Origin: Schmidtea nova
Lineage: Eukaryota
DNA: 37,061 nt
Assembly (NCBI GenBank): GCA_044892505.1
Contig: CM097883.1
Span: forward strand, 132,680,001 to 132,717,061
Reading direction: 5' to 3'
In this document: in pieces, positions 36 through 33,028 of the stretch
Layout: each line of letters starts with the position of its first letter
Position numbering within the stretch: the first letter of the stretch is position 1
Position numbers and translations under genes: made by a program
Notes under the pieces: generated by a model
What the model was told of the DNA's origin: nothing
Database searches by the model: none
The model's input: only the letters and a program-made list of their open reading frames with translations

Positions 36-305
36 TTATGACCTTTTTCCTAATAAACCAGCACCTCCTAATAATGGCAATGCTAATGGTAACAATGCTG
101 CAATAAATCCTTCTTGCTGTTTATATATTATTTTACGCATTAGTTTTTTATTATTTGTTTTTACAAGTGATAACAAAGGTTTCTTGTGTTTTTTTAAAAC
201 TCTTCTATTGGATTCACTTATATTGATTTTACCTCTAACAACTTTAATTAAAATCGTTAGTAAATCATCAATAACGTAATTAGGAAACGATTGTAAAATA
301 CTCAT
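36..305 (-). CDS. Small basic virion core protein, adenovirus pX/pVII-like (Polinton/adintovirus)
   Basis: 89 aa; Lys/Arg-rich middle followed by hydrophobic tail KQQEGFIAALLPLALPLLGGAG, resembling the GGF-xxLLP motif; adenain-type cleavage consensus (LxGG|x, LxGx|G); lies downstream of the packaging ATPase. Confidence 0.6.
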   Translation of the reverse strand: MSILQSFPNYVIDDLLTILIKVVRGKINISESNRRVLKKHKKPLLSLVKTNNKKLMRKIIYKQQEGFIAALLPLALPLLGGAGLLGKRS

Positions 306-325
306 TCTTCTAATACTAGGTGCTT

Positions 326-562
326 TTAGTAATGCATTGAAAAATGGGAAACTACGATGATGTATTTGTTTCGGATTTGGTTTGTAAGTATTTTGAATAC
401 GATTATTCTTTGGAATATTATCAATAAGTAATCTTTAGATGGTGTAAAACTGGTTTTCGAAACTGATTTCTTTGGTTTCTTTGAAACTAGTTTTTTCCCC
501 GGTTTCTTCATTTTTCTAGCCTTTATCAAGCGTTCAAACTTTACTCGAGATTTCAATAACAT
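326..562 (-). CDS. Lys-rich small Polinton ORF, unknown function (possibly frameshifted)
   Basis: ATG 22 nt after the ATPase stop; KMKKPGKKLVSKKPKK; co-oriented between the ATPase and the pX-like ORF. Confidence 0.4.
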   Translation of the reverse strand: MLLKSRVKFERLIKARKMKKPGKKLVSKKPKKSVSKTSFTPSKDYLLIIFQRIIVFKILTNQIRNKYIIVVSHFSMHY

Positions 563-583
563 TATTGGAAAATATATAATTAA

Positions 584-990
584 TCAACTTTGTTTATAAA
601 CCATGGCTCCTTCCTTGTTGAAAATATCAGTTCTAACTCTTAAATCATCACTACATTGTTGTGTGAAATTAAGGAAAAGATATCCATGAGGAGCTTTTGT
701 AGCATCTTGAAACTCCTCAATCAAGAAATTTCGTTTAGAAGGGTATGCTTTCCTTGCAAGAAAATCAATAACTGTTGCATCCTAGGATTTTAAAAACAAC
801 CAGATATTGAACATTCAAATTACGAGTTCGATGACTGCCGCCCTGATGAAATAAATTCTGAGTAATACAAATAACTGTAACACCCTTGTGTCTAGCGATT
901 TTTGTAAAAAAATTGTTAAAATCCTTTTCTTTATTTGCTTCTTGATACAAATCATCAATAATAATCACATTCCTTTCTCTTAATCTAGAT
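584..990 (-). pseudogene. FtsK/HerA-family packaging ATPase, C-terminal part
   Basis: Walker B VIIIDD, ARH and ITQNLF...RT..LNVQYLVVFK motifs. Adding one base to each of two homopolymers near 780-790 restores FKNPRDATVIDFLARKAYP...HGYLFLNFTQ...LRVRTDIF to the TGA at 584-586. Confidence 0.9.
985..990 (+). repeat. Left 6-bp target-site duplication CTAGAT
   Basis: Identical to 9249-9254; immediately abuts the AGTAGGGG terminus. Confidence 0.95.
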
Positions 991-2487
991 AGTAGGGGAT
1001 AGTGAGGTTACGAGCACAGTTTTTTCCCATAGCAGCGGTTGCTAAGGTTAGTACACACACATCAATATATAATCCCCGAAGAACACGTTGCCAGGGTAAA
1101 TACACACATGTAAATTTATAGTCCTAGTGAAATATGTTGCTAGGGTAAACACACACCAATGTATTTTCTTCGAGGAAACTGTTTCCAGGGTAAATACACA
1201 CATTAGGGTGACTTCCCTGAGGAACTTGTTGCCTGGGTAAACATACATACATACACATCAATATATAATTCTTAATGATAGATGTAGTTAAGGTAACTAC
1301 ACACAGCAATATATAGTCCCCGAGGAAGATGATGTCAAGGAAAATACACACAACAATATATAATCCCCGAGGAACCTGTTGCCAGGGTAAACACATATCA
1401 ATATATAATAATCGAGGAATCTTTTGCTAGAGTAGACACACACATTAAAGTATTGTCTCCTTGGAACCTGTTGCTAAGGTAAATACGCCATTGTGTAACG
1501 GCAGTGACTACTGTTGGTAACATCAAAACAAACAACACATTAATTATTACCCGTAACACACACGATAACATGTTTTTACTTAATCGAACGACGTTTTTGT
1601 TTTAATGTACTGACTAACATTTCGAGTAGTTGTTTATTAATTGATAATTTTTGATATATTATATAATTTTTGTAAAATGATCTTCAGAAAATCGAATATG
1701 AGAACTTTGAAAACGGATGAAATGAATGCGAGAATTGTGACAATAGTCGAAATTTTAAAGACGATTCTACAGAGTGCAACTACAAGAGCAGATGAAATTT
1801 AATAATATTTGTAAACAGAAACAATTATTTTTACATTAAATAAAAAGATTGACACAAAAAAAATGAAAACCCTGAACAATAAAACCGTTTGAAATCTTGT
1901 CAATACATAAAAACTTTAAAAATAATTAAACATAATAAACTAAAGAAATATAAAACTAAATATAATGAAGCCAATTATTTTTTAACAAAGTTTTATTCAA
2001 TACAAATCTGAATTGGATATTTAATTTGAATTGAGAGCTGGATCTGAAACTGGAACACCAACCTGATCTTTTGTTTGGTCTATAAACGAGCCACATCCCT
2101 TATAATGTCCGTATGCAAGACTTTCATTTTTATCAACCCAAAGTCTTTTATCATCAAGATTAGTCAAGGCAATTTTCGAATATTTATTAGTAAAGAGTTG
2201 ATGATTCTTACTAACTATTCTCGACTGATCAACAGAAACTATTGAATTATTATTATAACAATCCAGATACGACTGATGATTCAGTTTAGTATCCTTCAAT
2301 GTTATACCCTTAGCCTTAATGCACTCTTCATCACCTAAAAGACTGTAACACTTTGGCCTAAGGAATACCCACTCATCATACTTGAATCCTTTATTCTCGT
2401 CTTTGAATATTCCAATGACTGAATCTAGGTTCCTACTGTATAATGGGTGATTCGGATCATAATTAGAAGTGTCAAGTAAGTTATCTC
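991..2487 (+). repeat. Left inverted arm (1,497 bp)
   Basis: Reverse complement of 7752-9248 with about a dozen substitutions seen by eye; includes the 3' end of pPolB. Confidence 0.93.
1039..1490 (+). repeat. Subterminal array of ~10 degenerate ~47-bp units (core GTTGCYAGGGTAAAYACACAC...CGAGGAA)
   Basis: Core AGGGTAA-like motif at 1044, 1093, 1142, 1187, 1234, 1290, 1337, 1384, 1429, 1476 (spacing 45-56 bp). Confidence 0.85.
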
Positions 2488-5400
2488 TTATCATGGCCGG
2501 TAAAAGAATATCAAGCTTACAATTTCTAATCTCAAGAAAAAACGAATCGGTGTCACCAGCAACGATGTTAATTTCGCAGTTGAATTCGTTACGATATTTT
2601 TGTAACTCTTCATACTGCAGCTGGTACATCCTAAGTTTAGATAAATCCAGTACAGTTTGGCCAATGTAGCTGGGTCTATCTAAACACACAGAGTCCTTAT
2701 TAAGCAACACAGAAACTAGGTCATCGTCAATCCTATAAGTTTTTCTAAAAGTAGGTTTTGATGTATATGTAATCAGTTTTGATGCTGAATTACATAGTCG
2801 TAAATTGAGTCGTTTCTTAAGATTTTCAACCGTTTTCCCATAAAGACTATTATTCAAGAGTTTGTAATAGTTTTTATCTAAAGCCGTAGAAGAAGCTGCC
2901 ATAAGTTCAGTGTTCGTATCTATGTATATTTTAAAAATAGGTTTCTGATTGTACTGAACAGCCCGATGAACTCGTGTTATTTTAACACCCAAAGAAACAA
3001 AAAGCTTGAGAAGTCTCCAATGAACAACATAGTTGAATTTTGGATAATGCGTAAGCATTAACTTCTCAACTTTTGAACCCGGAGCACACATTTTCTCTGC
3101 TGCAACCGGAAAATCATTTAATTTATCGTGAATTTCTGAAGGGATTTCAAGATCCACTTCAAAAGTCACGCCATAAGTCAAAATAGCCAAATCAGCATCC
3201 ATTAATTTAATTAATTAATTTAATTTATTTTTATCTGTGATCCAACTAAATTCACCATAAGGAGATTTTTGACTTAAAGCTCACCCGTATAAATTATTTA
3301 TGTCAATATATAAAAGTTCAGTCGTTTCGGAGGATACTACATGATGCTTGTTGACAAATGTCAAACCACCACGGATTCCCCCTTCAAAAAAATTATAAAT
3401 CTCCATATCTTGGAGCAACTCAATAGGTTCATCCAAGGTAATAAGCGCAGAAGCCCACGACATACCTGGAATCCCCAAAAAATTCAAAGGCTCAAGTCTA
3501 TTTTGATCTATAGATTTAACCCTAAACTGTTGAAAGAAATCAGCAAGAAGAAAAACATCCAGTTTAAGGTAGACCATCATATAGTCACAAAGAGTTTGAC
3601 ACTGAGATTCCCTCCAAATCACCAATGCCTTGTCATATTCATTTTGTTTAACACCTTTCCAGATTGGTGGCAACTCATAAGTGTTGTTAAGAATTTCTAA
3701 AGATGTTGCAAAATCATAAGGAAAAATACCCTTACAATCAACAATAGTCCCGGCGAATTCAGATCTAGTCAAAGGCAAACAAGTAAGAGTCTTAACAGCG
3801 TCATTTAAACTAGAATTTACAAACTGACAAGAATCGATGAATTTAATGGTTAAATCACCAACCCTTGCAGACAATGTCAAGAATTTTTCACTAGTTGTAG
3901 GAATACAAGAAATTTTCCAAGTTTTAAAATTAGTCAAACCATATTTAAGAATATGGTGCAAGTCATAACCTTTTAAATTATGAAAAATAACGGGTAAAAA
4001 CTTGTATAAACGACGGGATTGATTACAAGAATTACAAGCAGCTCCCAAAAATTCACCAGTGTAATGATCATGGTCTCTGACTGGTTTTACTAAAGTTTTC
4101 TTACAAAGATAACAAATAGTAGCAGAATCAAAAGATTGTTGATTTGCCGATGTCATAAAAAGAGATTTCTTGTAATTAGTTCTATAAAAGGGATAAACAA
4201 TAGTTTCAGAAATATCACTAATTTCAGTAAGAAAATTAGTAACGCAATCAAGACCTAAGAAACTCTTGTAAGTTTTTTCACCAGTAAAGTTATTTACAAG
4301 TAAAAGACCGTCAGATATCGGGACATGTCGTTGAAAATAATTATCATCAGTAGGTAAAATTGCCTCAAAATCGGCATAAACAACAAAAGGTGGGGTAATT
4401 GTTTTACCCTAATTACTAAATTGTAAATCTTTATTTCTAGGCAGAGTATAAAGAGTTGTGCCTAATTGATTTTTAGCACACAACTGTTGATGACAATCGA
4501 ATGCTTCCTGTTTTCGAAATCCATTCAAGCATCGATGACACCATATACTTTGTACGCGAGCTACAGAAAGAGATCTATTGTCGTAATTTAAAAGCTTATC
4601 AAGATCGGTGACTGCAATATAATGATATGCATCACAACTTTCAAACAAAATCAAGTTAATAGGAGTACCGTCAACAACTTTCGACCTATGAATTATATCG
4701 ACACAAGGATGTTTAAAAACTTCAGGGTCTTCCAAGGTATCAAGAAGAGCATCTTCATCATAAGATAAAACATTAATAGCAAGTCCGGGATTTTTAGCCT
4801 CAAATTTTGGAATATTACAGAGTCTCATGGGCATTTCTGAAGGGTCAAAGACAAGATCCGAAAGATTATAATTATGTGCTCTATTTCTATTATTATCTAC
4901 CTCATCATATTTCAAAATAGCCAAGATGCTATAAATGAAACATAAATCATCGAAATTTCTTACGTTTACCGTACAATATTTTAATTGTAAAGATTGAGGG
5001 GTTTCAATATGACCTCTGCCACTCAATCGACTAATTTGAGAAAAATTTTGTTAATACAAAATGGATTTCATTAACTTTGTTAATAACCCAATTACTCCCT
5101 TTATCGTTAATTAATGCTATTTTTTCATTTAAAAGAGTGATACCTTCATCAAAAAAGTTATCACTCATGGGTCTCGCAGAATTTGAAATGATGAAGGATT
5201 GAAATTCTCCATCTTTTTCAAACTCTACATCAATACAAAATTGTATTTTCACTGAACCCATCTCATTAATAACATTATTTAATTTATTAATTAAAATATC
5301 AGGTAAAATTAAAGTTTTCAAAACCAAGTGTGAAACATCCATTTTTACAATAGAGTGAGATTTTCTCAAATCAAATTTAACGTTAGGAAGAAGGGACCCA

Positions 5401-5747
5401 CCATATTGAACATCTATGGTGGTAATGTCATTATTAAAACTTGTGTCAGAGTCGGAAAGAATTTTCATATCGGACATTACCTCGTAAACTATATTACTTA
5501 ATTTTTTAACTTTTGTAGGTAGTGGATTATCGATAAGGATTTTTCTTTTATTATTAATAATATTGTTATCACTATCACTACTATTTATTGTTAAATTAAA
5601 AAGAGATTTTTTCGAAGATCTAAATTTCCTTAAATGATCCTTATGGTCATCATAAAAGTTCAAAAAAGTCGAATTTTGGGTGGTCTTACATACGGGACAT
5701 ATAAAAAACGTGACTCCTTTATACGAATATCGGTAATATTTTCCCAT
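2021..5747 (-). pseudogene. Protein-primed family B DNA polymerase (pPolB), ~1,240 codons, disrupted
   Basis: The four ORFs join into one frame. Motifs: N-terminal CxxC..HxxH; GSNWVINKV...GRGHIETP; YADFE (exoI); endonuclease-VII-like CYLC..VRDHDHYTGEFLGAACNSCN; HNLKGYD; YIDINNLYG; KLLNNSLYGK; GDTDS; RPKCY; KAKGI. Lesions: +1 T near 5041-5047 and in-frame stops TAG 4409-4411, TGA 3281-3283, TAA 3215-3217. Confidence 0.95.
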
Positions 5748-6567
5748 TAATTCAATGCATTTATTGTTATGAATTGATGATCGGCAAAAATTCGGAAAAA
5801 GTTTACCTTAAATATAAAAAATAATTAAAATATGAACAATAAATGTCAAGTATTTTAATATAAAAATTAATGTCATTATACAATAATTAATATAAATTAA
5901 TTAATAATTACAATAATAAAAATTTAATTAAATAATTTAAATATTATGAAAACTAATATTAATTAATTTCAATTATTATATTCTTAACTAGAATTGTTTT
6001 AATAATAAGTTTTACTCAAAGATGTAAAATATACAATTAATATAAAAGTATTAATTTAATATAATAACTTTCATATAGAACACATTATTTACTATGATAG
6101 AAAATAAATTATTTATTAATAATTAATTTACAAAAACTTTAATTACTAGAAAATTATTAAAAATAAAACAATAAGTAATATTAATCAATATTCAAATTAA
6201 TTTTATATTAAAATTAATTAATTAATTATTATAAAATATTAGAATAATTATAATTAAAACTAGAATTGTTTTAATAATTAATTATAAAATAAAAATTCAA
6301 ATTTATGTAAATAATTTTCAAAAATTAATTTAAAATAATTTAAAATTTAGATAATTCAGCTAATTATTTTAAGTTGTCATTAGTATTTATTAACTTATCA
6401 ATAAATATTACAAATCTTATTGAATAATAAATAAAGATTAATTATTACATTACAAAATCGATAAAGAAAAATAATTCCTAAATAATTAAACTTAATATTT
6501 ATGAACAAAGGTAATTAATTATAAATTGAATTTAATAAATCAATTATTAAAATAAATCAATACTTAC

Positions 6568-6840
6568 AGTTATTTTCTTTTATTTTTTCCTTTTTCAGTT
6601 TATTTTTTATTAAACTATCCATTGTTTCAGATGCTTCAACATTGTAACCAATAAAGTTGTTCATATTGTTGTTGACATCGTTGTTGTAATCATTGATCAT
6701 GGTAATATCCATATTGTTGTTGGTGTTGTTCATTTTATCTAAAATAAGTTGATTGTTTAAAAATTTTAAAACAAAAATTAACTTACCAAATTTAGGTTGC
6801 AGTAAAAAGTGATTCTTAAATGAAAAACTATTGTTTATAT
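6568..6840 (-). other. Small spliced gene inside the inner element (TATA, 5' exon, 48-bp intron, Asn-rich 55-codon exon, second donor)
   Basis: TATATAAA at 6833-6840; intron GTAAG..TTTTAG 6786-6739; ATG 6733 reading MNNTNNNMDIT...KNKLKKEKIKENN; next GTAAG donor at 6567; downstream exon not found. Confidence 0.5.
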
Positions 6841-7751
6841 ACTAAATTCAAAAATTTTTAACCGATCAAATTCAAGGAAACATACACACACACGTTTGTA
6901 AATACCACAGTGTAATTTATTTTTACAATTAAATTTTTTAAAAATTATTAAACACATAATTTATTGTTATAAATATATGTCATCATTTAATGATAAATAT
7001 CAATTATTATTAAAATACAATGTAATAAATTAAGATTAATTTTAAAGTTAAATTACACTAATAAATTATAAAAATTATTACAAGTAATTAAAATTAAATA
7101 AAAAAAAAGTTTAATTATTCGATAAATTGTAAATTAATTGAAATAAAAATTAATTAATTAAAATAAAAATTAACTAAATAAAAGTTAACTAATTATTCAC
7201 AAAGTTATTAGTTTTTACATAATGTATTATTGTAGAGAATTAGAATATAAATTGTTACAGTGAAAACACAATTAAAGAATCAATCAGCAAATGAAATCAA
7301 TTATTTACAACAAAACCCATCTGTAACACGATAATTTTTAAATTTCTAATTAAACAATTTAGTGGAAAATTTATACATATAATGAAAACTCTAAAAAATT
7401 ATTTTAAAATTACAAAAATAACAAGAAAAAATGTGTGCAACAAGAAAAATGACTAATTTTATATTTTAATTTAAGCCATTTTATAGGAAATTAAATTCTA
7501 CATATACACTGTTAATGTGAAAACTCATTATCTTTATTTCAACATCAAAGAAAACCAATTAATAACAACAAAACATGTGTGCAGCGCGCAAAACACAACA
7601 TTTTAAATTTCCATTTTGGCCATCTTGTAGAGAATAAATTTCTGTCTATACATTGTTACAGAGAGAAAAACGAATAATTTCAATTTGAGGCACAAATAAA
7701 GAAAAAAGAAAAACGGGAGAAAAATTAAAAATGTTGATAGTAGAGTAGGGG

Positions 7752-8218
7752 GAGATAACTTACTTGACACTTCTAATTATGATCCAAATCACCCATTTTA
7801 CAGTAGGAACCTAGATTCAGTCATTGGAATATTCAAAGACGAGAATAAAGGATTCAAGTATGATGAGTGGGTATTCCTTAGGCCAAAGTGTTACAGTCTT
7901 TTAGGTGATGAAGAGTGCATTAAGGCTAAGGGTATAACATTGAAGGATACTAAACTGAATCATCAGTCGTATCTGGATTGTTATAATAATAATTCAATAG
8001 TTTCTGTTGATCAGTCGAGAATAGTTAGTAAGAATCATCAACTCTTTACTAATAAATATTCGAAAATTGCCTTGACTAATCTTGATGATAAAAGACTTTG
8101 GGTTGATAAAAATGAAAGTCTTGCATACGGACATTATAAGGGATGTGGCTCGTTTATAGACCAAACTAAAGATCAGGTTGGTGTTCCAGTTTCAGATCCA
8201 GCTCTCAATTCAAGTTAA
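7752..8218 (+). pseudogene. Duplicated C-terminal ~155 codons of pPolB within the right arm
   Basis: Near-identical to the end of the 2021-3202 ORF (RPKCYS, KAKGI, DDKRLW); no start or N-terminal domains. Confidence 0.92.
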
Positions 8219-8748
8219 ATATCCAATTCAGATTTGTATTGAATAAAACTTTGTTAAAAAATAATTGGTTTCATTATATTTAGTTTTATATTTCTTTAGT
8301 TTATTATGTTTAATTATTTTTAAAGTTTTTATGTATTGACAAGATTTCAAACGGTTTTATTGTTCAGGGTTTTCATTTTTTTTGCGTCAATCTTTTTATT
8401 TAATGTAAAAATAATTGTTTCTGTTTACAAATATTATTAAATTTCATCTGCTCTTGTAGTTGCACTCTGTAGAATCGTCTTTAAAATTTCGACTATTGTC
8501 ACAATTCTCGCATTCATTTCATCCGTTTTCAAAGTTCTCATATTCGATTTTCTGAAGATCATTTTACAAAAATTATATAATATATCAAAAATTATCAATT
8601 AATAAACAACTACTCGAAATGTTAGTCAGTACATTAAAACAAAAACGTCGTTCAATTAAGTAAAAACATGTTATCGTGTGTGTTATGGGTAATAATTAAT
8701 GTGTTGTATGTTTTGATGTTACCAACAGTAGTCACTGCCGTTACACAA

Positions 8749-9200
8749 TGACGTATTTACCTTAGCAACAGGTTCCAAGGAGACAATACTTTAATGTGTG
8801 TGTCTACTCTAGCAAAAGATTCCTCGATGATTATATATTGATATGTGTTTACCCTGGCAACAGGTTCCTCGGGGATTATATATTGTTGTGTGTATTTTCC
8901 TTGACATCATCTTCCTCGGGGACTATATATTGCTGTGTGTAGTTACCTTAACTACTTCTATCATTAAGAATTATATATTGATGTGTATGTATGTATGTTT
9001 ACCCAGGCAACAAGTTCCTCAGGGAAGTCACCCTAATGTGTGTATTTACCCTGGAAACAGTTTCCTCGAAGAAAATACATTGGTGTGTGTTTACCCTAGC
9101 AACATATTTCACTAGGACTATAAATTTACATGTGTGTATTTACCCTGGCAACGTGTTCTTCGGGGATTATATATTGATGTGTGTGTACTAACCTTAGCAA
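8749..9200 (-). repeat. Mirror copy of the ~47-bp subterminal array
   Basis: Reverse complement of 1039-1490. Confidence 0.85.
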
Positions 9201-9248
9201 CCGCTGCTATGTGAAAAAACTGTGCTCGTAACCTCACTATCCCCTACT

Positions 9249-9254
9249 CTAGAT
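9249..9254 (+). repeat. Right 6-bp target-site duplication CTAGAT
   Basis: Directly follows ...CCCCTACT; identical to 985-990. Confidence 0.95.
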
Positions 9255-9469
9255 GACCAATTTTTATCGAAACCTTTTATGATTATCATTTTTATTTTAC
9301 AAAATTGATCTTGAGTCATTCCATGTTCTTCATCTGCACCCCTATGCCAATTAATTTTATTAAACTTTGATTTGAATAATTTTGACTGTAATAATTTACA
9401 AACAAATAAAGTTTTTCCACTCCCGCTCGGTCCAACAATTTGAGACACTGCATCATTTCTTAATTCCAT
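9249..9469 (-). pseudogene. FtsK/HerA-family packaging ATPase, N-terminal part
   Basis: Walker A GPSGSGKT. Removing 991-9248 and one TSD copy joins it in frame to the 584-984 part (NWSSR|LRERNVIIIDD). Confidence 0.92.
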
Positions 9470-9560
9470 ATTTCTAATTTTATTATATTATTATTGTTTA
9501 TATTTGTTTTAAATAATAATTGTTTTTATTATTGTCATATTTAAAATATTTTTATTAATT

Positions 9561-10020
9561 ATTAGCAACATAAATTATAAGGGTAGGACTGATGTATCGT
9601 ACATGAATTTTCCTAAGTGGAAACCACAACAAATTGTAGATAGAAGTGGTAAATATCCGATAATATATTTTAAGACCGGGAGATTTAGAATTATGGGATG
9701 CAAGGAATTTATTAGTGATGAAAGGGTAAAGTTTTACGACTTAACAATCGATTACTGTAACCGCAGACTTGGGATTTAATTGTAATTTAACTGATTTGGC
9801 TAAATTAATAGAATGTGTTTACGAGTCAGAATTATTTCCAGCTTCGAGATATACAAAATATAACCCCATGTGTGTTAATATATTTGCAAGTGGTAAAGTA
9901 ATTATATTAGGTTTAAAACCTAGGGACTATTTAAATATAGTTGATAATATAATTATGGATATAAAATCAATTATTGAAGATAAAGCCTTTGTTGATATCA
10001 TATTATCGTGTAACTCATGA
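9561..10020 (+). pseudogene. Divergent TATA-binding-protein (TBP)-like gene, one frameshift
   Basis: Second TBP repeat: ITVTADLGFNCNL...YESELFPASRYTKYNPMCVNIFASGKVIILGLK (cf. YEPELFPGLIYRM..P..VLLIFVSGKVVLTGAK). First repeat in another frame: ISNINYKG...PQQIVDRSGKYPIIYFKTGRFRIMGCK. Frameshift near 9745-9755; start codon uncertain. Confidence 0.75.
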
Positions 10021-10193: not shown

Positions 10194-10593
10194 ATGTGTC
10201 TCAAAACAACTTTGGTGAAATATGGTAAAGTTTTAAATTTATCATTTTTCTTTTTTATAATATTTATTTACAGATAAATTGATGGCCGTACTGTTCGGCA
10301 AAATGGAGGTAATGTTTCCAAGTCTGATGTCCAAACTAGTCTACACGGCTCCGGAGAATCTCCCAATCAAAATCCTTTCAATCACCGGGATTGATATAAA
10401 TAAAATAGTGTTTGACCATCTGGCCAACTTGGAAATGGAGTTGCCGTTCATGGCAGAACATATTCTTTGTGCCTACCAATACGGGCACTGCACGGAAAGA
10501 ATAGAGAAATACCGAATTTGGCTATTGAGAAAAGCTCTCAAAAATTTCGAGATGGAGTCTCGTAAAGAAAAAGAAGAAAACGAAGAAAAATAA
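10194..10593 (+). CDS. Two-exon orphan gene (10194-10224, 10274-10593), ~116 aa
   Basis: TATA-like TATATATA ~10152; ATG 10194; 49-bp phase-1 intron GTAAAG..TTACAG (10225-10273) splices in frame into ORF 10279-10593. The frame stays open ~30 codons past the TAA. Confidence 0.6.
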
Positions 10594-10809
10594 GAATGGC
10601 CCAACTGCACTCCCGATGAATCGATGGATTGCATCAGGCCGAATACTACAAATTCTCAGGCTAATTCTCCTTTAAATAGTGAACTCATTTTTTATTCGGT
10701 TTATTTTTGAATTTTCTAGATGTTATGATTCACAAATTCCCAAAATACTTAAAATTATCATGCAAAAATTATCTAAATAAAATTACGAAAATAAAATTTT
10801 TTTTTCTCC

Positions 10810-14066: not shown

Positions 14067-14483
14067 ATGCCAGCTCGTAAATCAACTTATGACATTAGTG
14101 AAGAAAGAAAATTCAATAATGAAGTGAAACCGGTTCAAATGTATTTCGATTACAAAATTTTTTTCTTGGTACAAGAAATACCATTTCGTTTGTCGTATCC
14201 AGTGAAATTAACAAAGTTTTTGTATGACAATTTAGCTGCAAATCTAAGTAAAGAAGATGTTGTTGCACTAAATAAAGTTTTATTCAAAATCAATAACAAT
14301 TTATGTTGCAAGGAAACTATATGGATCAACAATCGAAAACCCCGTTTCCATGATGCTTTCCAATCTATCGAATACAAGGATCAAGAAAATTGGTTTATTA
14401 CCATAATAATTCAGGGATATAAAATCGATACAAAAGATGTTATAACTCCAATTTGGAGAATTGACAGTGCGCGATATGCATAA
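14067..14483 (+). CDS. Intact intronless orphan protein, 138 aa (probable Polinton accessory gene)
   Basis: AAAATGC start context; TATA upstream; AATAAA at 14509-14514; natural composition; beta-rich C-terminus WFITIIIQGYKIDTKDVITPIWRI. Confidence 0.7.
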   Translation: MPARKSTYDISEERKFNNEVKPVQMYFDYKIFFLVQEIPFRLSYPVKLTKFLYDNLAANLSKEDVVALNKVLFKINNNLCCKETIWINNRKPRFHDAFQSIEYKDQENWFITIIIQGYKIDTKDVITPIWRIDSARYA

Positions 14484-15360: not shown

Positions 15361-15407
15361 CTTGTTTGAAGGTTTGATCTTTGGAAATTCAAATTTGAAA
15401 TTTGAAA

Positions 15408-15605
15408 TAACTCATCGATGACGTCATAAAATTCAAATTTGAAATGAGTCATCGTGATGAGTCATCCTCGATGAGTAATACCTATGCGTCATCCGGATGA
15501 GTCATAAAACATTTTCCCCCGTGGGGAGGCGGTAGAGAAAAAATGAGTCATTGATGAGTCATATGTCTTTGTTCTCGATGACTATCTACTTCATAACTAT
15601 CTACT
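15408..15605. promoter_or_regulatory. Dense AP-1/CRE-site cluster ending in a duplicated AGTAGATAGT terminus-like motif (candidate Polinton TIR end)
   Basis: TGAGTCA at 15445, 15458, 15498, 15544, 15555; TGACGTCA at 15419; variants TGAGTAA and TGCGTCA; ACTATCTACT at 15581 and 15596. Confidence 0.6.
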
Positions 15606-17012
15606 TATGAATCAATGTGTATTATTATGTAATAACTATATGAAGCAATATGTTCTTCTGTAATAAACTTCAATATTATGTCATAGGTCTAAAGAATTTG
15701 AGAAATCTCATGCAATTTTTGTATTTTTACGTAAAACTTATTCAATAAAAATGGATAATTATGCAATTATTGAAATAAAAATATAAAATCACGTATTTTT
15801 TACGTTGAAATTACGTTAATTTCCAAAATAAATTAATGGTGTGGCCTATTCAAAAACATATTGGGGGTCTCTGGGATATTTGGTTTAATCTAGATAGCTA
15901 AAATTCCTCTACTGGAGAGTTGTTAAGAGTGTTATAAATGAGCTATCAAAAGATAGTTAGCATTAACATAGGAATAATCTGATCATCCCGAGGAGAGAAG
16001 GTCGAATTGGACTGATCATCGCAAATCATGGGATGAGTCGACGATTTTTTCTGCATTTTTGAATTAGGGGAAAAATTTTATCTATTTTAGAAAGCAAATC
16101 TATGCTAAAAGCATAGTTAGAGTAATGGTGCATATAAATTAAAATAAAATAGGAATTTAGCAATATTAGAAAAATTGTGAATTATTTATAAAGAAAATTA
16201 GGTCTGATGAATGAATTTCATAGTAGTGCTATAAGAGAAATAAGTTATAGGTATAAGAAAAATTAAAATAAAAAAGATAATGTTTAATTAGAAAAAACGT
16301 GAGAAATAATAATTTAAGGTATGCCGGGAAGTTTTATATCTTTTCATTGGTCAAGGATTTTATAAATTAAGATAGATAGAGAATTTAAGAGTAATAGAAG
16401 ATATAGAGATGTGAAAATTAAAGAGAAATAAGATCGCAAACTTCTAAAGTTATCCGCCAACAACTCTATCATTGGTTATTTACTTTTAGTATATCATCGC
16501 AAACTCTGACCATAGTTGGAACAACTTTACTTGCTATTTATATCATATTTCTATCAATGATAACAAAGACATTCAATATGAAATAGTAATATCAAAATGA
16601 AAACAAATGAAAATACTGCGGGAATCTATGTTTAAAGATCAAATCAAAATGCTTATCGGAATAGTTGCGATTCCCATAGTAGATCTATCGAAATCTATAA
16701 ATAAAAAATATTTACGAAATATCCAATTCCATTCATCGTAACGATAGCGAATCGCAATCAAATAAATCAATTATTTCTAAAAACAATTCAAATACTCTCC
16801 TCTCATTAGTCCGCCTAAATTTAGTAACACTCTTCATTTTATTTTTATATAAAATTCAATGCGATTCTGATGTGAATAAAATCAAAATTCTATCAATGCA
16901 TTTCAACAGTTTCATCAAGATTTTGTTTATATCGATTTATCAGTTCAATTTCCAATTGGAATTGGCATCAAGTCTCTGTGCTCCAATGCATTCACAATCG
17001 TCCATTAGAGGA

Positions 17013-28250: not shown

Positions 28251-28309
28251 TTTAACATTGTAAGTGGTGAAATTATTTTGCATCTAACGATTAAGATGCT
28301 AAAATCCAG

Positions 28310-29346
28310 TTGCTGTTTCCAGATATTAAAATGTATTCCTTTTTTGCTTCCACTAGTGGAGAACAACTTTTAAAATGCAATACTGATACTTCAGACATAA
28401 CATTATACAACTCCAGTGATCTAATAAGTGATTCGATTTTAATTAACGGAATTACATTTTCTAACTTGCATTTAGTTGTATGGTTTTCAAACGATGACAA
28501 TTCTAAAAACATTATTTATCTGTATAATATAAAAGTAGGTGATACCGGATCGAGAATGACTTCAAAATTACTTGAATACCCACTTGAGTATTTTAAGATA
28601 TCCAAAGTCAAAATTGCCGTCCACCCTTTTCCTCATTTATCATGTACAATCATTGAACAGTATAATTGTATTTTGAGTGAACATTTTTGCATGGATGATG
28701 TAGATATATTGTTGGTTATAATGAATCTCTTTATGATATTATGCTAGAACAAATAAATGTAAAAGAGCTGGTATTGCATCATAGTAATAGATTGGTAGCC
28801 CAAGTTTGTAGTTCGTCAACAGCCTCTAGTAGATTTGAAAATGAAATATACAGTAATTTTTCAGTATTATCAAATCTTGTTCGTTATCCAAGAATAAATT
28901 TTCCAGTAGCTAGTTACATACCATTCGGTTCAGTGACAAACATAGAAACGTATAAGACATTCGAAATTTTGAAATACAATCTACATTCATTTGAAGAAGA
29001 AAATACTTGTTGGTATCGAGATTCTATTAGCAAATTATTGACGAACATCAATCAATGCTCTACAATGGCGAACCCGAGTTCCAACCATATGTTTAATAGT
29101 AAGAGTTCTTACATTGTTCTATGGCTAAATGCTGGGTTTATGGGGACCATTTCCAAACGAACACTAAAATATCAATTAAACATTAAAGATAAATTTTCTA
29201 TATTATTCAACTCGTTAAACAAGGAATATAATGTCAAAACACACGAGTATGCACTCATTTATAACAACCCAACAATTTTAACAACAGACAACCCAGAAAC
29301 ATTAGGAATGTGCAACAATTCATTCATTGACATTTACTACCTTTAA
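28310..29346 (+). pseudogene. Highly divergent alpha-tubulin-like gene, frameshifted with internal deletions
   Basis: VGDTGSRMTSKLLE (GGGTGSGFTSLLME); IIEQYNCILSEH (VVEPYNSILTTH); after a frameshift near 28730, NESLYDI (NEAIYDI); SNRLVAQVCSSSTASSRFE (LNRLIGQIVSSITASLRFD); NLVRYPRINFPVASYIP (NLVPYPRIHFPLATYAP); WLNAGF (WCPTGF). Confidence 0.85.
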
Positions 29347-29354
29347 GTGGTGGT

Positions 29355-30105
29355 GCCGACAATAATGATAAGCTCGAGTTGATTGCACAGTTTGATCCTT
29401 TTATGGCCGAACACATAAAAAATTATGGTGACAGCGGTTCTGGAAAAACAAACTACCTCTCAAAGACTACATGTGAGGAGTTGATCGTATTGATGGCAAG
29501 AAAAGTTTTGCAATCAATCAGCGATGATGTTCTAAATACGAATTATTATGGATTATCAGTAGACTCGACACCTGATGTGAGCCACAAAGATCAACTATGT
29601 GTGATCTCGAGGTACATTGATCAGACTTCTAATGAGCCAATCGAAAGATTTGTCAACTACATCCACATCGATAATCACACAGGGGAAAATTTAGCAAATG
29701 AAACTGTGGGCTTTTTAGACGAAAGATTGAACTTGGAAATCAGCAACTGCAGAAGCCAGTCTTATGATAACGCGAGCAATATGACTGGACAATATATAGA
29801 CATGAAAACTAAAATTTTGGAACTCAATAAGCTGGAAAATTCTTGCCATGTTCAGGTCATTCTCTTAACTTAGTGGACTGTTGCATCGAAAGGAATAAAT
29901 TTTTTCAGTATTGTTCATGAACTCTACAATTTTTTCTCTGTTTCTACAAAGCGATGGAGTATTTTGGGACAATTGGCAAGTAGTTCATTGAAATCACTAT
30001 CGAATAATCGATGGAGCGCTCATGCTGACACGGTCAAATCCATTCAGCAAAGATACGACAAATTGATGGAAGCATTGCTCACAATCAATGAGAGTGAAAG
30101 TTTTT
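29355..30105 (+). pseudogene. hAT transposase fragment (ZMYM1/DUF4371-like)
   Basis: LIAQFDPFMAEHI; NYLSKTTCEELI; YYGLSVDSTPDVSHKDQL; ERFV; QSYDNASNM; then frameshifted HSLNL, YNFFSVSTKRW and LKSLSNNRWSAH; truncated at both ends. Confidence 0.92.
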
Positions 30106-30507
30106 AATTACTTTGGTCGCGCCAACTTTGTAAAATATTAAAAAAGTAATTAAATAAAAATAAAATAGTAAAAGGCGGGGCTTAAAGCTGTGAGAGATTG
30201 TGGGGCGAGCATGGAAGTCTGAAGCCGGTAAACGGTATTATCGAAATCTATATAAATCGTATATGATATGGTCTGTGCACAACAACATGGGCAGTGCAAT
30301 TGACATTCACTCTGCTATTAAATCTGTGATACCTTCACTAGTCGGATTAGTTGTAGTTAATGTTGTTGAAGGATCGGCTCTCGGCGCATTATACAGTATG
30401 AATAATTATCTTCACAACAGACCATGTGTTTTCCAATCACTATTTCATCAGCATCCCAACTCTCGGACTATAGACTTAATCGATTCATCGATTCCTCTAA
30501 GTGCTCA

Positions 30508-31923
30508 TCAATTGTCTCCTGAATTATATTCCTCAAAATTACAATTTTCTTCGACATCGTTTATATTTCCCACAATTTTCTCATCGACAATGCAGTTTTC
30601 TTCAAAATTATATTCATTTACTGCCCGCTCATCTTTTACTACCATTGTCGATTCAATTTCCGTCATTACTTCTTGCACTAATTCGTTTGAAGTAGTATTT
30701 ATTCCATCCTCGCTTGCAATATCAACCGACCCAAATTTGTCAATCATTTCACCAGACACACCACCATTCATCGCGCTATTCTCACTTCGACCTGAATTCA
30801 AATCGCCATCACCAGTTCGAACCTCACCAAGAACTGCTTCCTGAGCTTTAGGTGCAAAACTCTCGATACATTCCTCTTTACACTGTTCTTCTCGATAAGT
30901 CACGATTGACCTGTTTTGATTCTCGGTTTTCTTTTTACTGTCATCCATTTTTATCACAGGAAAATGTCGCAGTCCACATTGTGGACGTGGGTACCTTCTA
31001 TTGTCAATCTTTTCAGAAGCCTTGCAGTGTTTCTGCCCGTACTACCAATTGAAATCCTTTTTCTGACCCAATCCATATAATATCTCATTTGTCGCTCGTA
31101 TTAGTTCGGCTTCCTTTTGCAACCACTCCTTTAACCGTTTTACTGATTCCTCACTTTCATCTTTTGCATGCTCTCTTTTCCATTGAATAAGTAGAGAAGC
31201 AGGTAATTTCTTCAACAGTTGTTGTAAGATACAGCCTCTCTGTATGTTCTCTTCTCTTCCAATTGCCTTAAACCGTACTTCCATGGATTCCAGCAATCCA
31301 ACAAAACTATCCAAATCTTTTATTTCTCCTTCGCAAACCGGCATAAACTTGTCTACAGTTTCTAACATAATCAGGTAACTACGTTCTTCACCTCCGTATC
31401 GCCTTTCCAATTTATCTTTCGCCATTTTGTAGCCTTCGGCGGTATAACCCAGTGGCTCTGTCATTCGCAGAGGTTCACCTAAGAAGTACTGCTTAAGATG
31501 CAGCATTTTTTCTTCGGCTGTTTCATCTGCCTTATCTATTACCGTGTTGAAGGCCGCCTTCCAATTTTCAAACTTGATCACTTTCCCATCGAAAATCGGA
31601 ATCTTAATTTTCTGCAACCGATTTAAACTCTTCTTTTCTCTTGGCTCTTCACCATCTGACGTTTTCGACCCTTCAATTATTACACTTCCTTTCTTAATTT
31701 GCAATATTTTATTTATCTCTTCCTTCTTTAATTCGATTTCACCAATATCTTTCTCAACTAACTCCATTTCCTCGTTTTTGTCTAATCTTTCACATAGTTC
31801 CAACAGTCTTTGCTATTCGTTCAAGGCCTGTTAAAATTCTTTCTCATATGCTTCTAGTGAATCCTTGAGCTCCCCATTTATGTCTGCGAGCAATAAATTA
31901 CGCATTTGACTCACTCTCCATTT
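30508..31923 (-). pseudogene. Bel/Pao LTR-retrotransposon Gag (DUF1759-like)
   Basis: IKIPIFDGKVIKFENWKAAFNTVID; EKMLHLKQYF; GYKMAKDKLERRYG; LLKKLPASLLIQW; degenerate Zn-knuckle (HCK...PQCGLRH); in-frame acidic tail; stops at 31831, 31813, 31042. Confidence 0.85.
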
Positions 31924-31971
31924 TTAAGATCGCTGACGGGTCCATAAACTTTTGAACTCTTCCTCATCATT

Positions 31972-32235
31972 ACCACCTCTTAAACGAAGAACAAGATGAA
32001 GAGTAGATTCTTTTTGAATGTTGTAAACTGACAGGATTCTTCCGTCTTCCAATTGTTTACCCGCAAATATCAATCTCTGTTGATCAGTAGGGATTCCATC
32101 TTTGTCTTGAATCTTTGCTTTTACTTTCTCAATAGTGTCCCTCGATTCAACTTCCAGTGTTATTGTTTTACCTGTTAAAGTTTTAACAAAAATCTGTATT
32201 CCACCTCTCAATCGCAAAACAAAATGCAAAGCTGA
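31972..32235 (-). pseudogene. Polyubiquitin fragment: C-terminal remnant (..[12 protein letters not shown]) plus one full 76-aa ubiquitin
   Basis: [17 protein letters not shown]...[12 protein letters not shown] at 32199-31972; 68/76 identical to canonical ubiquitin by manual comparison; all seven Lys and the terminal GG retained. Confidence 0.97.
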
Positions 32236-32622
32236 CTACGTTTGATTTTCTGTCACTCGCGAACTATAATCTTTTAAACTTTTCCTTTCATCACCACTTG
32301 ATATTGAATAAAAACGCACTAATTCCCCTATTTTATTCATATTTACCCTGTCTTCATGAATACCTAATTTAATATTTTTAGCAACTTGATCATAGAAATT
32401 TTTATAATTACTTTTATCTCCCATTACTCCTACAAAAAGTTCTAAGCCTTTTCCCACTAACTCTTTTCTGATTACTTTCAAAATTTTATTTTGTTGCAAC
32501 ATTTCCCGGCTGATATTCAATAGAAGATCTTCACTGTCATAACCAGTCCACCTACTAACCTCTACACCTTTAAATATCAAGTTATCTTTTTCTATACATG
32601 TTGCCTCGTAAGCAGGTGACAC
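32236..32622 (-). pseudogene. HSP90: Cytosolic Hsp90 middle-domain fragment
   Basis: [25 protein letters not shown]; [20 protein letters not shown]; [20 protein letters not shown], matching Hsp90 [25 protein letters not shown]...[10 protein letters not shown]...SGDEMVSLKDY..RMKENQ. Confidence 0.95.
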
Positions 32623-32657
32623 AATTTTATCTCTTTGTCTATTTAATTCAATAAATG

Positions 32658-32718
32658 ATCTTTGTTTATTTTCAACTTTATTAAAATCTTTATGAAAAGT
32701 TTGAAAATAAACAAAGAT
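32658..32718. repeat. 18-bp perfect inverted repeat with 25-nt spacer
   Basis: ATCTTTGTTTATTTTCAA (32658-32675) / TTGAAAATAAACAAAGAT (32701-32718). Confidence 0.8.
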
Positions 32719-32859
32719 AATTTTGGAATGATGTTCATATTTTTTTGTTCGTGATGATTGAGGTAATACTAATAAAATTTTATTGATGTAATTATTTATT
32801 TTGGTCTGCCGATTGAAAACCTTATCAATAATTTATAGATTGATTATTGAATAAGTGAC

Positions 32860-33028
32860 AAAATGGACAATAAACCTTCTATCGGTCGCGTTTGAACCCA
32901 CTGTGATGTTCGGTCATTCATAGTTTCGACATCCACAAGATGGTTTTGACTAATGATTTATGTGTTGAGTTGTTGATGGGATCCATAACAACGCCGAGAT
33001 AATGTTGACGATCAACAACCCACCATAT
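32860..33028 (+). repeat. Dispersed repeat family B, copy 3 (internally deleted)
   Basis: Aligns with 13400-13632 but lacks ~65 bp of the middle. Confidence 0.8.

Follow-up and report, generated by a model that had tools for sequence, protein, structure and literature searches.

A short TBP-like protein of Polinton elements and a TATAAACA box on their virion genes: a putative early-to-late transcription switch

Results

Organization of the locus

The window, by which we mean the whole stretch of 37,061 nucleotides of Schmidtea nova DNA that was analysed, contains a decayed Polinton-type element (the outer element) that is interrupted by a second, inserted element. The outer element carries a broken gene for a short protein related to the TATA-binding protein (TBP), here called mini-TBP. 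Features are listed below by position in the window.

36..583, minus strand: basic core-protein-like gene, homologue of ORF178, broken
585..990, minus strand: packaging ATPase, 3' part, broken (end estimated from alignment to an intact natural copy)
591..598, minus strand: TATAAACA box within the final ATPase codons (YKQ), upstream of the basic core-protein gene
991..9248: inserted element of Polinton type, distinct from the outer one, with inverted repeats of 1497 bp and a target duplication of 6 bp
9249..9469, minus strand: packaging ATPase, 5' part, with Walker A
9470..9557: divergent, AT-rich spacer of 88 nt between the ATPase and mini-TBP genes
9495..9502, minus strand: TATAAACA box, putative late promoter, 33 nt upstream of the ATPase ATG
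9558..10020, plus strand: broken copy of the mini-TBP gene (frame altered within 9745-9779, start codon absent)
10282..10676, plus strand: ORF212 homologue, interrupted downstream
14067..14483, plus strand: predicted T7 gp2.5-like single-stranded DNA-binding protein (SSB) with an OB fold, from structure comparison
15380..15606: outer-element terminus (most matches found elsewhere in the genome end at about 15606)

The ATG of the ATPase gene lies at 9469-9467 on the minus strand and the spacer is therefore 88 nt long, in line with an earlier note on this DNA, which had described a TBP-like gene divergent from the ATPase across an AT-rich spacer of about 100 bp. From approximately 15606, the outer element comprises the genes for SSB, ORF212, mini-TBP, the split ATPase and the core protein, followed by the 5' part of an integrase gene that lies immediately outside the window on its upstream side; similarity to the complete copy described below ends there. 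The COOH-terminus of the ORF178-type core protein appears pX-like by resemblance. The SSB at 14067-14483 gave middling Z scores of 7.2-7.9 in fold comparison with gp2.5, Enc34-type and ASFV CP312R proteins. ORF138, which had been a candidate for a TBP partner, folds as an SSB and was rejected in that role. TGAGTCA words, which we take to be AP-1-like, are repeated at 15400-15570, close to the outer-element terminus.

The inserted element (8.26 kb, with inverted repeats at 991-2487 and 7752-9248 that are 99% identical) splits the ATPase gene of the outer element, and a broken pPolB is its only recognized gene; the window pPolB matches DNA_pol_B_2 (Pfam). The 1.5-kb inverted repeats hold 47-bp tandem units and the 3' end of pPolB. 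The mini-TBP gene is part of the outer, decayed element and not of the inserted pPolB element. Farther along the window, at 28295-33025, host-derived tubulin-like, Hsp90 and ubiquitin fragments lie amid hAT-like and retroelement pieces.

In the list of open reading frames, the mini-TBP gene appears as two overlapping frames, 9513-9779 and 9745-10020. The 3' frame matched the Pfam TBP family (PF00352) with an E value of 1e-10 and a score of 41.6 bits (cut-off, 22.9), over the COOH-terminal lobe (C-lobe) only, and the 5' frame by itself had no Pfam match; an intact copy from elsewhere in the genome scored 52.7 bits against the same cut-off of 22.9, again over the C-lobe only. When an X was inserted at the frame break so that the window copy could be read as one protein, 35 PDB sequences were matched, all of them TBPs or TBP fusions (best E value, 3e-14). 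Intact copies are 155 amino acids long, with a family range of 145-160 in this Polinton lineage. The earlier note had ascribed the damage to a single frameshift, but the window copy also lacks an ATG where intact copies start (about 9558). The window copy is thus a pseudogene.

Predicted structure and conserved residues of mini-TBP

The structure model predicted for an intact natural copy (36 sequences) had a pLDDT of 92.8. Comparison by VIA with archaeal TBP gave a Z score of 12.0 and an rmsd of 2.6 Å for 139 residues over both lobes, and that with yeast TBP gave a Z score of 11.4; the VIA comparisons as a whole ranged from Z 11 to 12 with 139-142 residues over both lobes. All Foldseek PDB rows with E < 0.001 among the matches listed were TBPs, and the best named matches in BFVD were nucleocytovirus TBPs (TM about 0.6-0.74, 12-19% identity). 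The proposal of a TBP-like gene was therefore borne out by the PF00352 match, by the PDB matches and by the predicted TBP fold, the model aligning to TBPs over both lobes at Z 11-12 in the fold check that had been suggested. Structural alignments of mini-TBP with cellular TBPs showed 21-30% identity, and the approximately 85 residues alignable at this level would be too few to place the origin of mini-TBP by a tree. The higher scores obtained with archaeal TBP do not speak for an archaeal origin.

The model predicts a complete ten-strand saddle that lacks helices H1 and H2 of the NH2-terminal lobe (N-lobe), with no helix before residue 78. Spacings at the positions of H1 and H2 were 45 and 19 residues in mini-TBP versus 56 and 33 in host TBP, and 115 aligned homologues showed this shortening by 11 and 14 residues. 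The 115 sequences, which are biased toward top matches, remained after 16 of 131 examined were left out as lying outside 125-200 amino acids, and the N-lobe was placed in register manually, on the basis of lobe symmetry. Both TBP saddle repeats had been described as recognizable; the two motifs quoted for them were found, but the NH2-terminal repeat is incomplete and consists of strands only.

Residues are given below in yeast TBP numbering. The equivalents of E186 and E188 in the C-lobe stirrup were glutamate in 111 and 114 of the 115 homologues, respectively, and those of F116, F190 and F207 were phenylalanine in 114, 115 and 115. The F99 equivalent was aromatic in 0/115, and DNA bending may therefore be weak. 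A check of the intercalating phenylalanines and of the TFIIB contacts had also been suggested: three of the four phenylalanines and the stirrup glutamates are kept, whereas F99 is lost. Several hydrophobic residues of the DNA face are swapped for conserved polar ones in the family, the equivalents of I194, V203 and L205 being R, C and N in 113/115, 115/115 and 115/115.

The positions of I194, V203 and L205 alter TATA specificity in the yeast mutant TBPm3, the 3' half of the box is where the N-lobe of TBP sits, and Pro191 is tied to the 5' T (PMC1636458). Proline was present at both symmetric positions of mini-TBP (105/115 and 113/115), which by inference would fit a box that starts with T and ends with A. 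A TBPm3-like N-lobe pocket, considered as a reason for the C at position 7 of the box described below, was found in its full combination in 29 of the 115 homologues. In cellular TBP, TFIIA, TAF1, Brf and Mot1 engage a surface located on helix H2 of the N-lobe, and the stirrup glutamates of the C-lobe contact TFIIB (PMC7221094).

Copies in the host genome and relatives in metagenomes

Among 16,757 candidates, at least 150 copies of mini-TBP with 86-100% identity were found in this genome. The frame was intact in at least 20 of 30 copies inspected, with a divergent ATPase in 26 of the 30 and ORF212 following mini-TBP in 29. At five sites inspected with their flanks, the whole gene set was present in four, and one site is deleted. 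The dN/dS ratio for mini-TBP was 0.10-0.35 in 10 pairs drawn from natural copies and relatives (14 pairs were chosen, of which four were left out because the frame was not recovered by pattern), and by this measure the gene is under purifying selection.

One natural copy is complete, spanning 18,088 bp with inverted repeats that start with AG and a 6-bp target duplication. One strand encodes SSB, ORF212 and mini-TBP, and the other encodes the ATPase, core protein, integrase, minor capsid protein, ORF126, major capsid protein (MCP), protease, ORF148 and pPolB. The integrase matched rve (4e-9) and the packaging ATPase matched Pox_A32 (4e-6) in Pfam, the pPolB frame of 1311 amino acids matched the window pPolB, and His, Asp, Gln and Cys motifs of an adenoviral-type protease were apparent by eye. 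The capsid-type genes ORF406 and ORF347 had no useful Pfam match, and we assign the capsid names tentatively, from gene order, size and resemblance. ORF212 had no match in Pfam or the Atlas and no homologue among the frames of the relatives.

The host genome also contains a canonical, intron-containing TBP gene and three TBP paralogues, one of them intronless, together with several TFIIB/Brf-like genes, the host TFIIB gene being split by introns. We additionally noted a 7.9-kb inverted-repeat element at approximately 356,087,843-356,095,812, with related loci L152/L153 and L148. It carries the ATPase, core gene, integrase, both capsid-type genes and an inverted protease; its family has neither mini-TBP nor pPolB, yet ATAAACA boxes are kept. 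From this gene content, the element looks like a satellite Polinton.

Homologues of mini-TBP were present in 42 of 59 candidate clusters, at 41-72% identity. A profile search matched 543 of 3565 sequences, of which the best 120 were mostly 130-180 amino acids long and those beyond the best 120 may include cellular TBPs; over 100 family members share this short design, and the metagenomic relatives, in Polinton context, likewise number over 100. At 60 metagenomic loci, another element gene accompanied mini-TBP in 39, a hallmark gene in 23, the ATPase in 17 and SSB nearby in 19. The 21 loci without another element gene were mostly short contigs, and one was an archaeal TBP. The homologues thus lie inside Polintons and are not stray host pseudogenes, as the counts of 39/60 and 23/60 indicate.

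Gene order varies among the relatives, with mini-TBP preceding the ATPase, following the capsid block or adjacent to SSB. In the 17 relatives with an ATPase, the two genes were co-oriented in 15, divergent with SSB between them in one and directly head-to-head in one. The head-to-head arrangement noted previously therefore holds for 26/30 copies in this genome but is not a defining trait, and as a conserved feature it was rejected; judged from these loci, it is lineage-specific. Scans of viral contigs, made with the TBP profile and with MCP, ATPase and outer ATPases, yielded no usable full-length TBP-negative Polinton, and three distant ATPase loci, too distant for comparison, had no mini-TBP match. 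At locus L172, a 12.4-kb Polinton segment with mini-TBP lies inside a bacterial metagenome-assembled genome, most likely as a binning contaminant.

A variant TATA box upstream of virion genes

A (T)ATAAACA box was found upstream of virion-module genes. In the interval from -60 to -21, ATAAACA was present for 24 of 27 late genes (packaging ATPase, core protein and major capsid), at about 30-45 nt upstream, versus 0 of 37 TBP genes. Wider counts were made in de-duplicated relatives within 100 nt upstream and compared with shuffles. The box preceded the ATPase gene in 13/13 cases (shuffle mean 0.7, maximum 3), ORF178 in 8/8, MCP in 6/6, ORF126 in 5/6, the minor capsid gene (mCP) in 4/6, the integrase gene in 5/9 and ORF148 in 2/3; antisense boxes numbered 0 for ATPase, ORF178, MCP, ORF126, mCP and integrase. 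Corresponding values were 3/9 for SSB (0.3 by chance) and 2/36 for mini-TBP (1.6 by chance). The region upstream of the mini-TBP gene instead contained a canonical TATA in 20/36 cases (4.7 by chance), an Inr-like TCA[TC]T in 27/36 (14.0 by chance) and CCAAT in 10/36 (0.5 by chance). The distance from box to ATG, mostly 31-36 nt for the ATPase, matches that from TATA to ATG at the TBP gene, mostly 35-49 nt. Neighbouring genes had been credited with clear TATA boxes, but what the virion genes carry is the TATAAACA variant and not an ordinary TATA.

A total of 10 kb of the complete copy contained six exact sites, all sense, with 1.4 expected. Virion modules (36.6 kb) contained 70 sense versus 2 antisense sites, a bias for which A-richness of the coding strand accounts in part (ATAAAAA, 44:7), and pPolB (10 kb) contained 3 versus 0. 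ATA AAC codons were present in 6/6 ORF126 genes (background, 0.41 x 0.26), and TAT AAA C in 12 of 13 ATPase gene ends. In a second TBP-linked clade, with ATPases that are 39% identical, a YK[QRH] tail was present in 83 of 106 scorable sequences among 120 ATPases examined, and it is missing from outer relatives of this clade. As far as codon usage can tell, the box is held inside coding sequence and shapes the codons of neighbouring genes. Exceptions were the L172 ATPase, which is without a box, and the L100 minor capsid gene, which has a canonical TATA. By eye, a canonical-type TATA precedes the protease gene of the complete copy, and the mini-TBP spacer in the family of this genome has no clear canonical TATA.

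Discussion

A proposed late transcription factor

Mini-TBP is likely a late factor because a conserved TATAAACA box is present on the genes for packaging and capsid proteins. We propose, with a probability of roughly 65%, that it is made early, reads TATAAACA and recruits host TFIIB and RNA polymerase II. The previously voiced idea of a switch for late (structural) genes thereby gains support from the sequence of virion-gene promoters. Host machinery would transcribe the mini-TBP gene early from its host-type promoter, and the protein would then bind TATAAACA at the TATA position of virion genes. Its polar, rewired DNA face may read the nonconsensus C at position 7 of the box. TBP and TFIIB are a textbook pair whose association is DNA dependent. 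The kept stirrup glutamates would bind host TFIIB and so bring RNA polymerase II; these residues are near-invariant and no TFIIB-like gene was detected (no TFIIB- or Brf1-like frame in the complete element or in seven relatives), and host TFIIB is therefore indicated. Loss of N-lobe H2 would remove the surface for TFIIA, TAF1, Brf1 and Mot1, with the result that mini-TBP may be TFIID independent and hard to evict.

The link between protein and box rests on their co-occurrence. The 7.9-kb family that keeps the box without mini-TBP fits supply of the protein in trans and fits a host reader equally well. Intact mini-TBP copies elsewhere in the genome could supply the protein in trans. The fuller picture is of a widespread Polinton clade with its own early-to-late switch, in which the smallest known TBP, stripped of helices, uses a private TATAAACA box written into its neighbours' codons, recruits host TFIIB, escapes TFIID, TFIIA and Mot1, and serves TBP-less satellites in trans; we regard the chances for and against this whole as about even.

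A host factor, be it TBP, one of its paralogues or a Forkhead protein, might instead read the box while mini-TBP does something else. ATAAACA fits the Forkhead core, RYAAACA, the host has three TBP paralogues, and the TBP-less satellite family retains the box. Some nonconsensus TATA boxes also function with host TBP (PMC2396422). Such a reader appears unlikely in view of the fixed, TATA-like distance from box to ATG and of the way the box accompanies mini-TBP across clades whose ATPases are only 39% identical. The orientation of the sites is, moreover, unlike that of Forkhead sites, with ATAAACA at 61 sense to 1 antisense versus 6:3 for GTAAACA, 15:20 for ATAAATA and 8:13 for GTAAATA. Resemblance to AATAAA, frequent placement among the final codons of the gene before it and one copy that abuts an ATG could point to a 3'-end or initiator signal, and the frequent adjacency of the mini-TBP and SSB genes to a protein that bends DNA for replication or packaging. 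We consider these readings quite improbable: the box precedes the ATPase gene where no same-strand gene ends, was found at 0/8 ORF148 ends, 0/3 pPolB ends and after 1/15 SSB genes, and is not located at the termini of the complete element, and the TFIIB-contact residues are kept. Both the Forkhead and the poly(A) interpretations of the box fit worse than does a late factor.

A near-invariant TFIIB stirrup combined with a deleted co-activator surface is how a dominant-negative TBP would be expected to look (surfaces as in PMC7221094), and the F99 equivalent is lost; mini-TBP could thus be a decoy that titrates host TFIIB or occupies host TATA boxes and so dampens host transcription. We hold this to be improbable, given that it leaves the box unexplained and that the DNA-face residues have not drifted but have become a new invariant R, C and N (equivalents of 194, 203 and 205; 113, 115 and 115 of 115). 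That a stray, decaying host TBP pseudogene was captured by one element is scarcely credible. The broken window copy is what such an origin would leave, but the at least 150 copies, many of them intact, the dN/dS of 0.10-0.35, the more than 100 family members that share its short design, and a host TBP that is a separate, intron-containing gene refute it for the family, and it holds only in the sense that the window copy is dead.

If the late-factor proposal is correct, mini-TBP and its box would constitute a natural orthogonal TBP-promoter pair and the first described late-transcription programme of a Polinton. A dedicated factor and promoter make the timing of capsid-gene expression and the virus-like behaviour of Polintons testable; such a pair also argues for a staged viral programme. 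Mini-TBP would in addition be a natural deletion experiment on TBP, retaining the DNA face and TFIIB stirrup minus the regulatory helices, and with its box could be turned into a small orthogonal pair of promoter and factor. The peptide tails YKQ and INK may serve as a protein-level marker for finding box-using elements.

Comparison with known systems

Mini-TBP resembles cellular TBP, TRF and archaeal TBP in its two-lobed beta saddle, complete C-lobe, YEPELFP stirrup and three of four intercalating phenylalanines. It differs in length (about 150 versus about 180 amino acids) and in the absence of predicted N-lobe helices H1 and H2; cellular TBP has four intercalating phenylalanines and H1 and H2 in both lobes, neither of which applies to mini-TBP. 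With nucleocytovirus TBPs it shares a viral TBP fold and loss of the N-lobe regulatory signature, whereas those proteins have diverged at the TFIIB contacts and often are accompanied by a virus-encoded TFIIB (PMC7221094); in mini-TBP the glutamates are near-invariant, and no TFIIB-like gene was detected.

The closest functional parallel may be KSHV ORF24 and EBV BcRF1, viral TBP-like proteins with a polar DNA face that act on variant TATA boxes of virion genes alongside host-type early promoters (PMC12529657), the mini-TBP side of this likeness being drawn from sequence evidence. ORF24 uses a polar interface to read late promoters of the TATTWAA type (PMC12529657). It is a large protein that binds RNA polymerase II directly and depends on five further viral activators, whereas mini-TBP is a bare saddle for which no viral partner was identified, and the ORF24 model is described as TFIIB-incompatible, whereas mini-TBP keeps the TFIIB stirrup (PMC12529657). 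The structural match with BcRF1 was weak (E value, 0.035), and mini-TBP lacks the polymerase-binding NH2-terminal domain of herpesvirus-type vTBPs; the likeness is one of function and not of membership. Viral TBP-like late factors are thus already known, and what appears to be new here is the TATAAACA box on packaging and capsid genes and its pairing with mini-TBP in Polintons.

The elements share with adintoviruses, Polintons and Mavericks the core gene set, with the capsid genes assigned tentatively, inverted repeats and 6-bp target duplication (PMC8502044, PMC8097293). A "TBP" label is present in figure legends for MELD viruses in Starrett et al. 2021 (PMC8502044; bioRxiv 697771). In the portions of that paper available (PMC8502044), there is no text on mini-TBP structure, spread or function, "promoter" is absent from the main text, and the text labels of Fig. 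S2 include SSDBP in Hydra and Stylophora elements and do not include TBP. TBP is not among the eight genes that make up the vertebrate Maverick core (PMC8097293), and TBP and TATA terms are absent from the accessible text of papers on vertebrate, nematode and coral Polintons, a giant-transposon review and a 2026 preprint. The literature covered, with subscription papers and Repbase reports largely outside its scope, held no account of the mini-TBP family or box beyond the Starrett legend, and its available parts described no mechanism of late transcription in Polintons. The locus had been put forward as a candidate for an undescribed system; within the literature covered, this stands for the protein family and box, whereas the name "TBP" had already been attached to adintoviruses in a legend, which on its own does not establish the family identity of the label.

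Planarian Polintons are described as piRNA-repressed and de-silenced on differentiation (PMC8532177). In the complete copy, the integrase gene (about 5770-5860) and the protease gene (9095-9150) seem by eye to hold short GT..AG introns; vertebrate Mavericks are described as intron-free. In several relatives, the start of the integrase gene is overlapped, in a different reading frame, by a small conserved MG...SCC frame, which lies from about 5319 onward in the complete copy and on the minus strand at window position 32 and upstream, and possibly encodes a myristoylated virion peptide.
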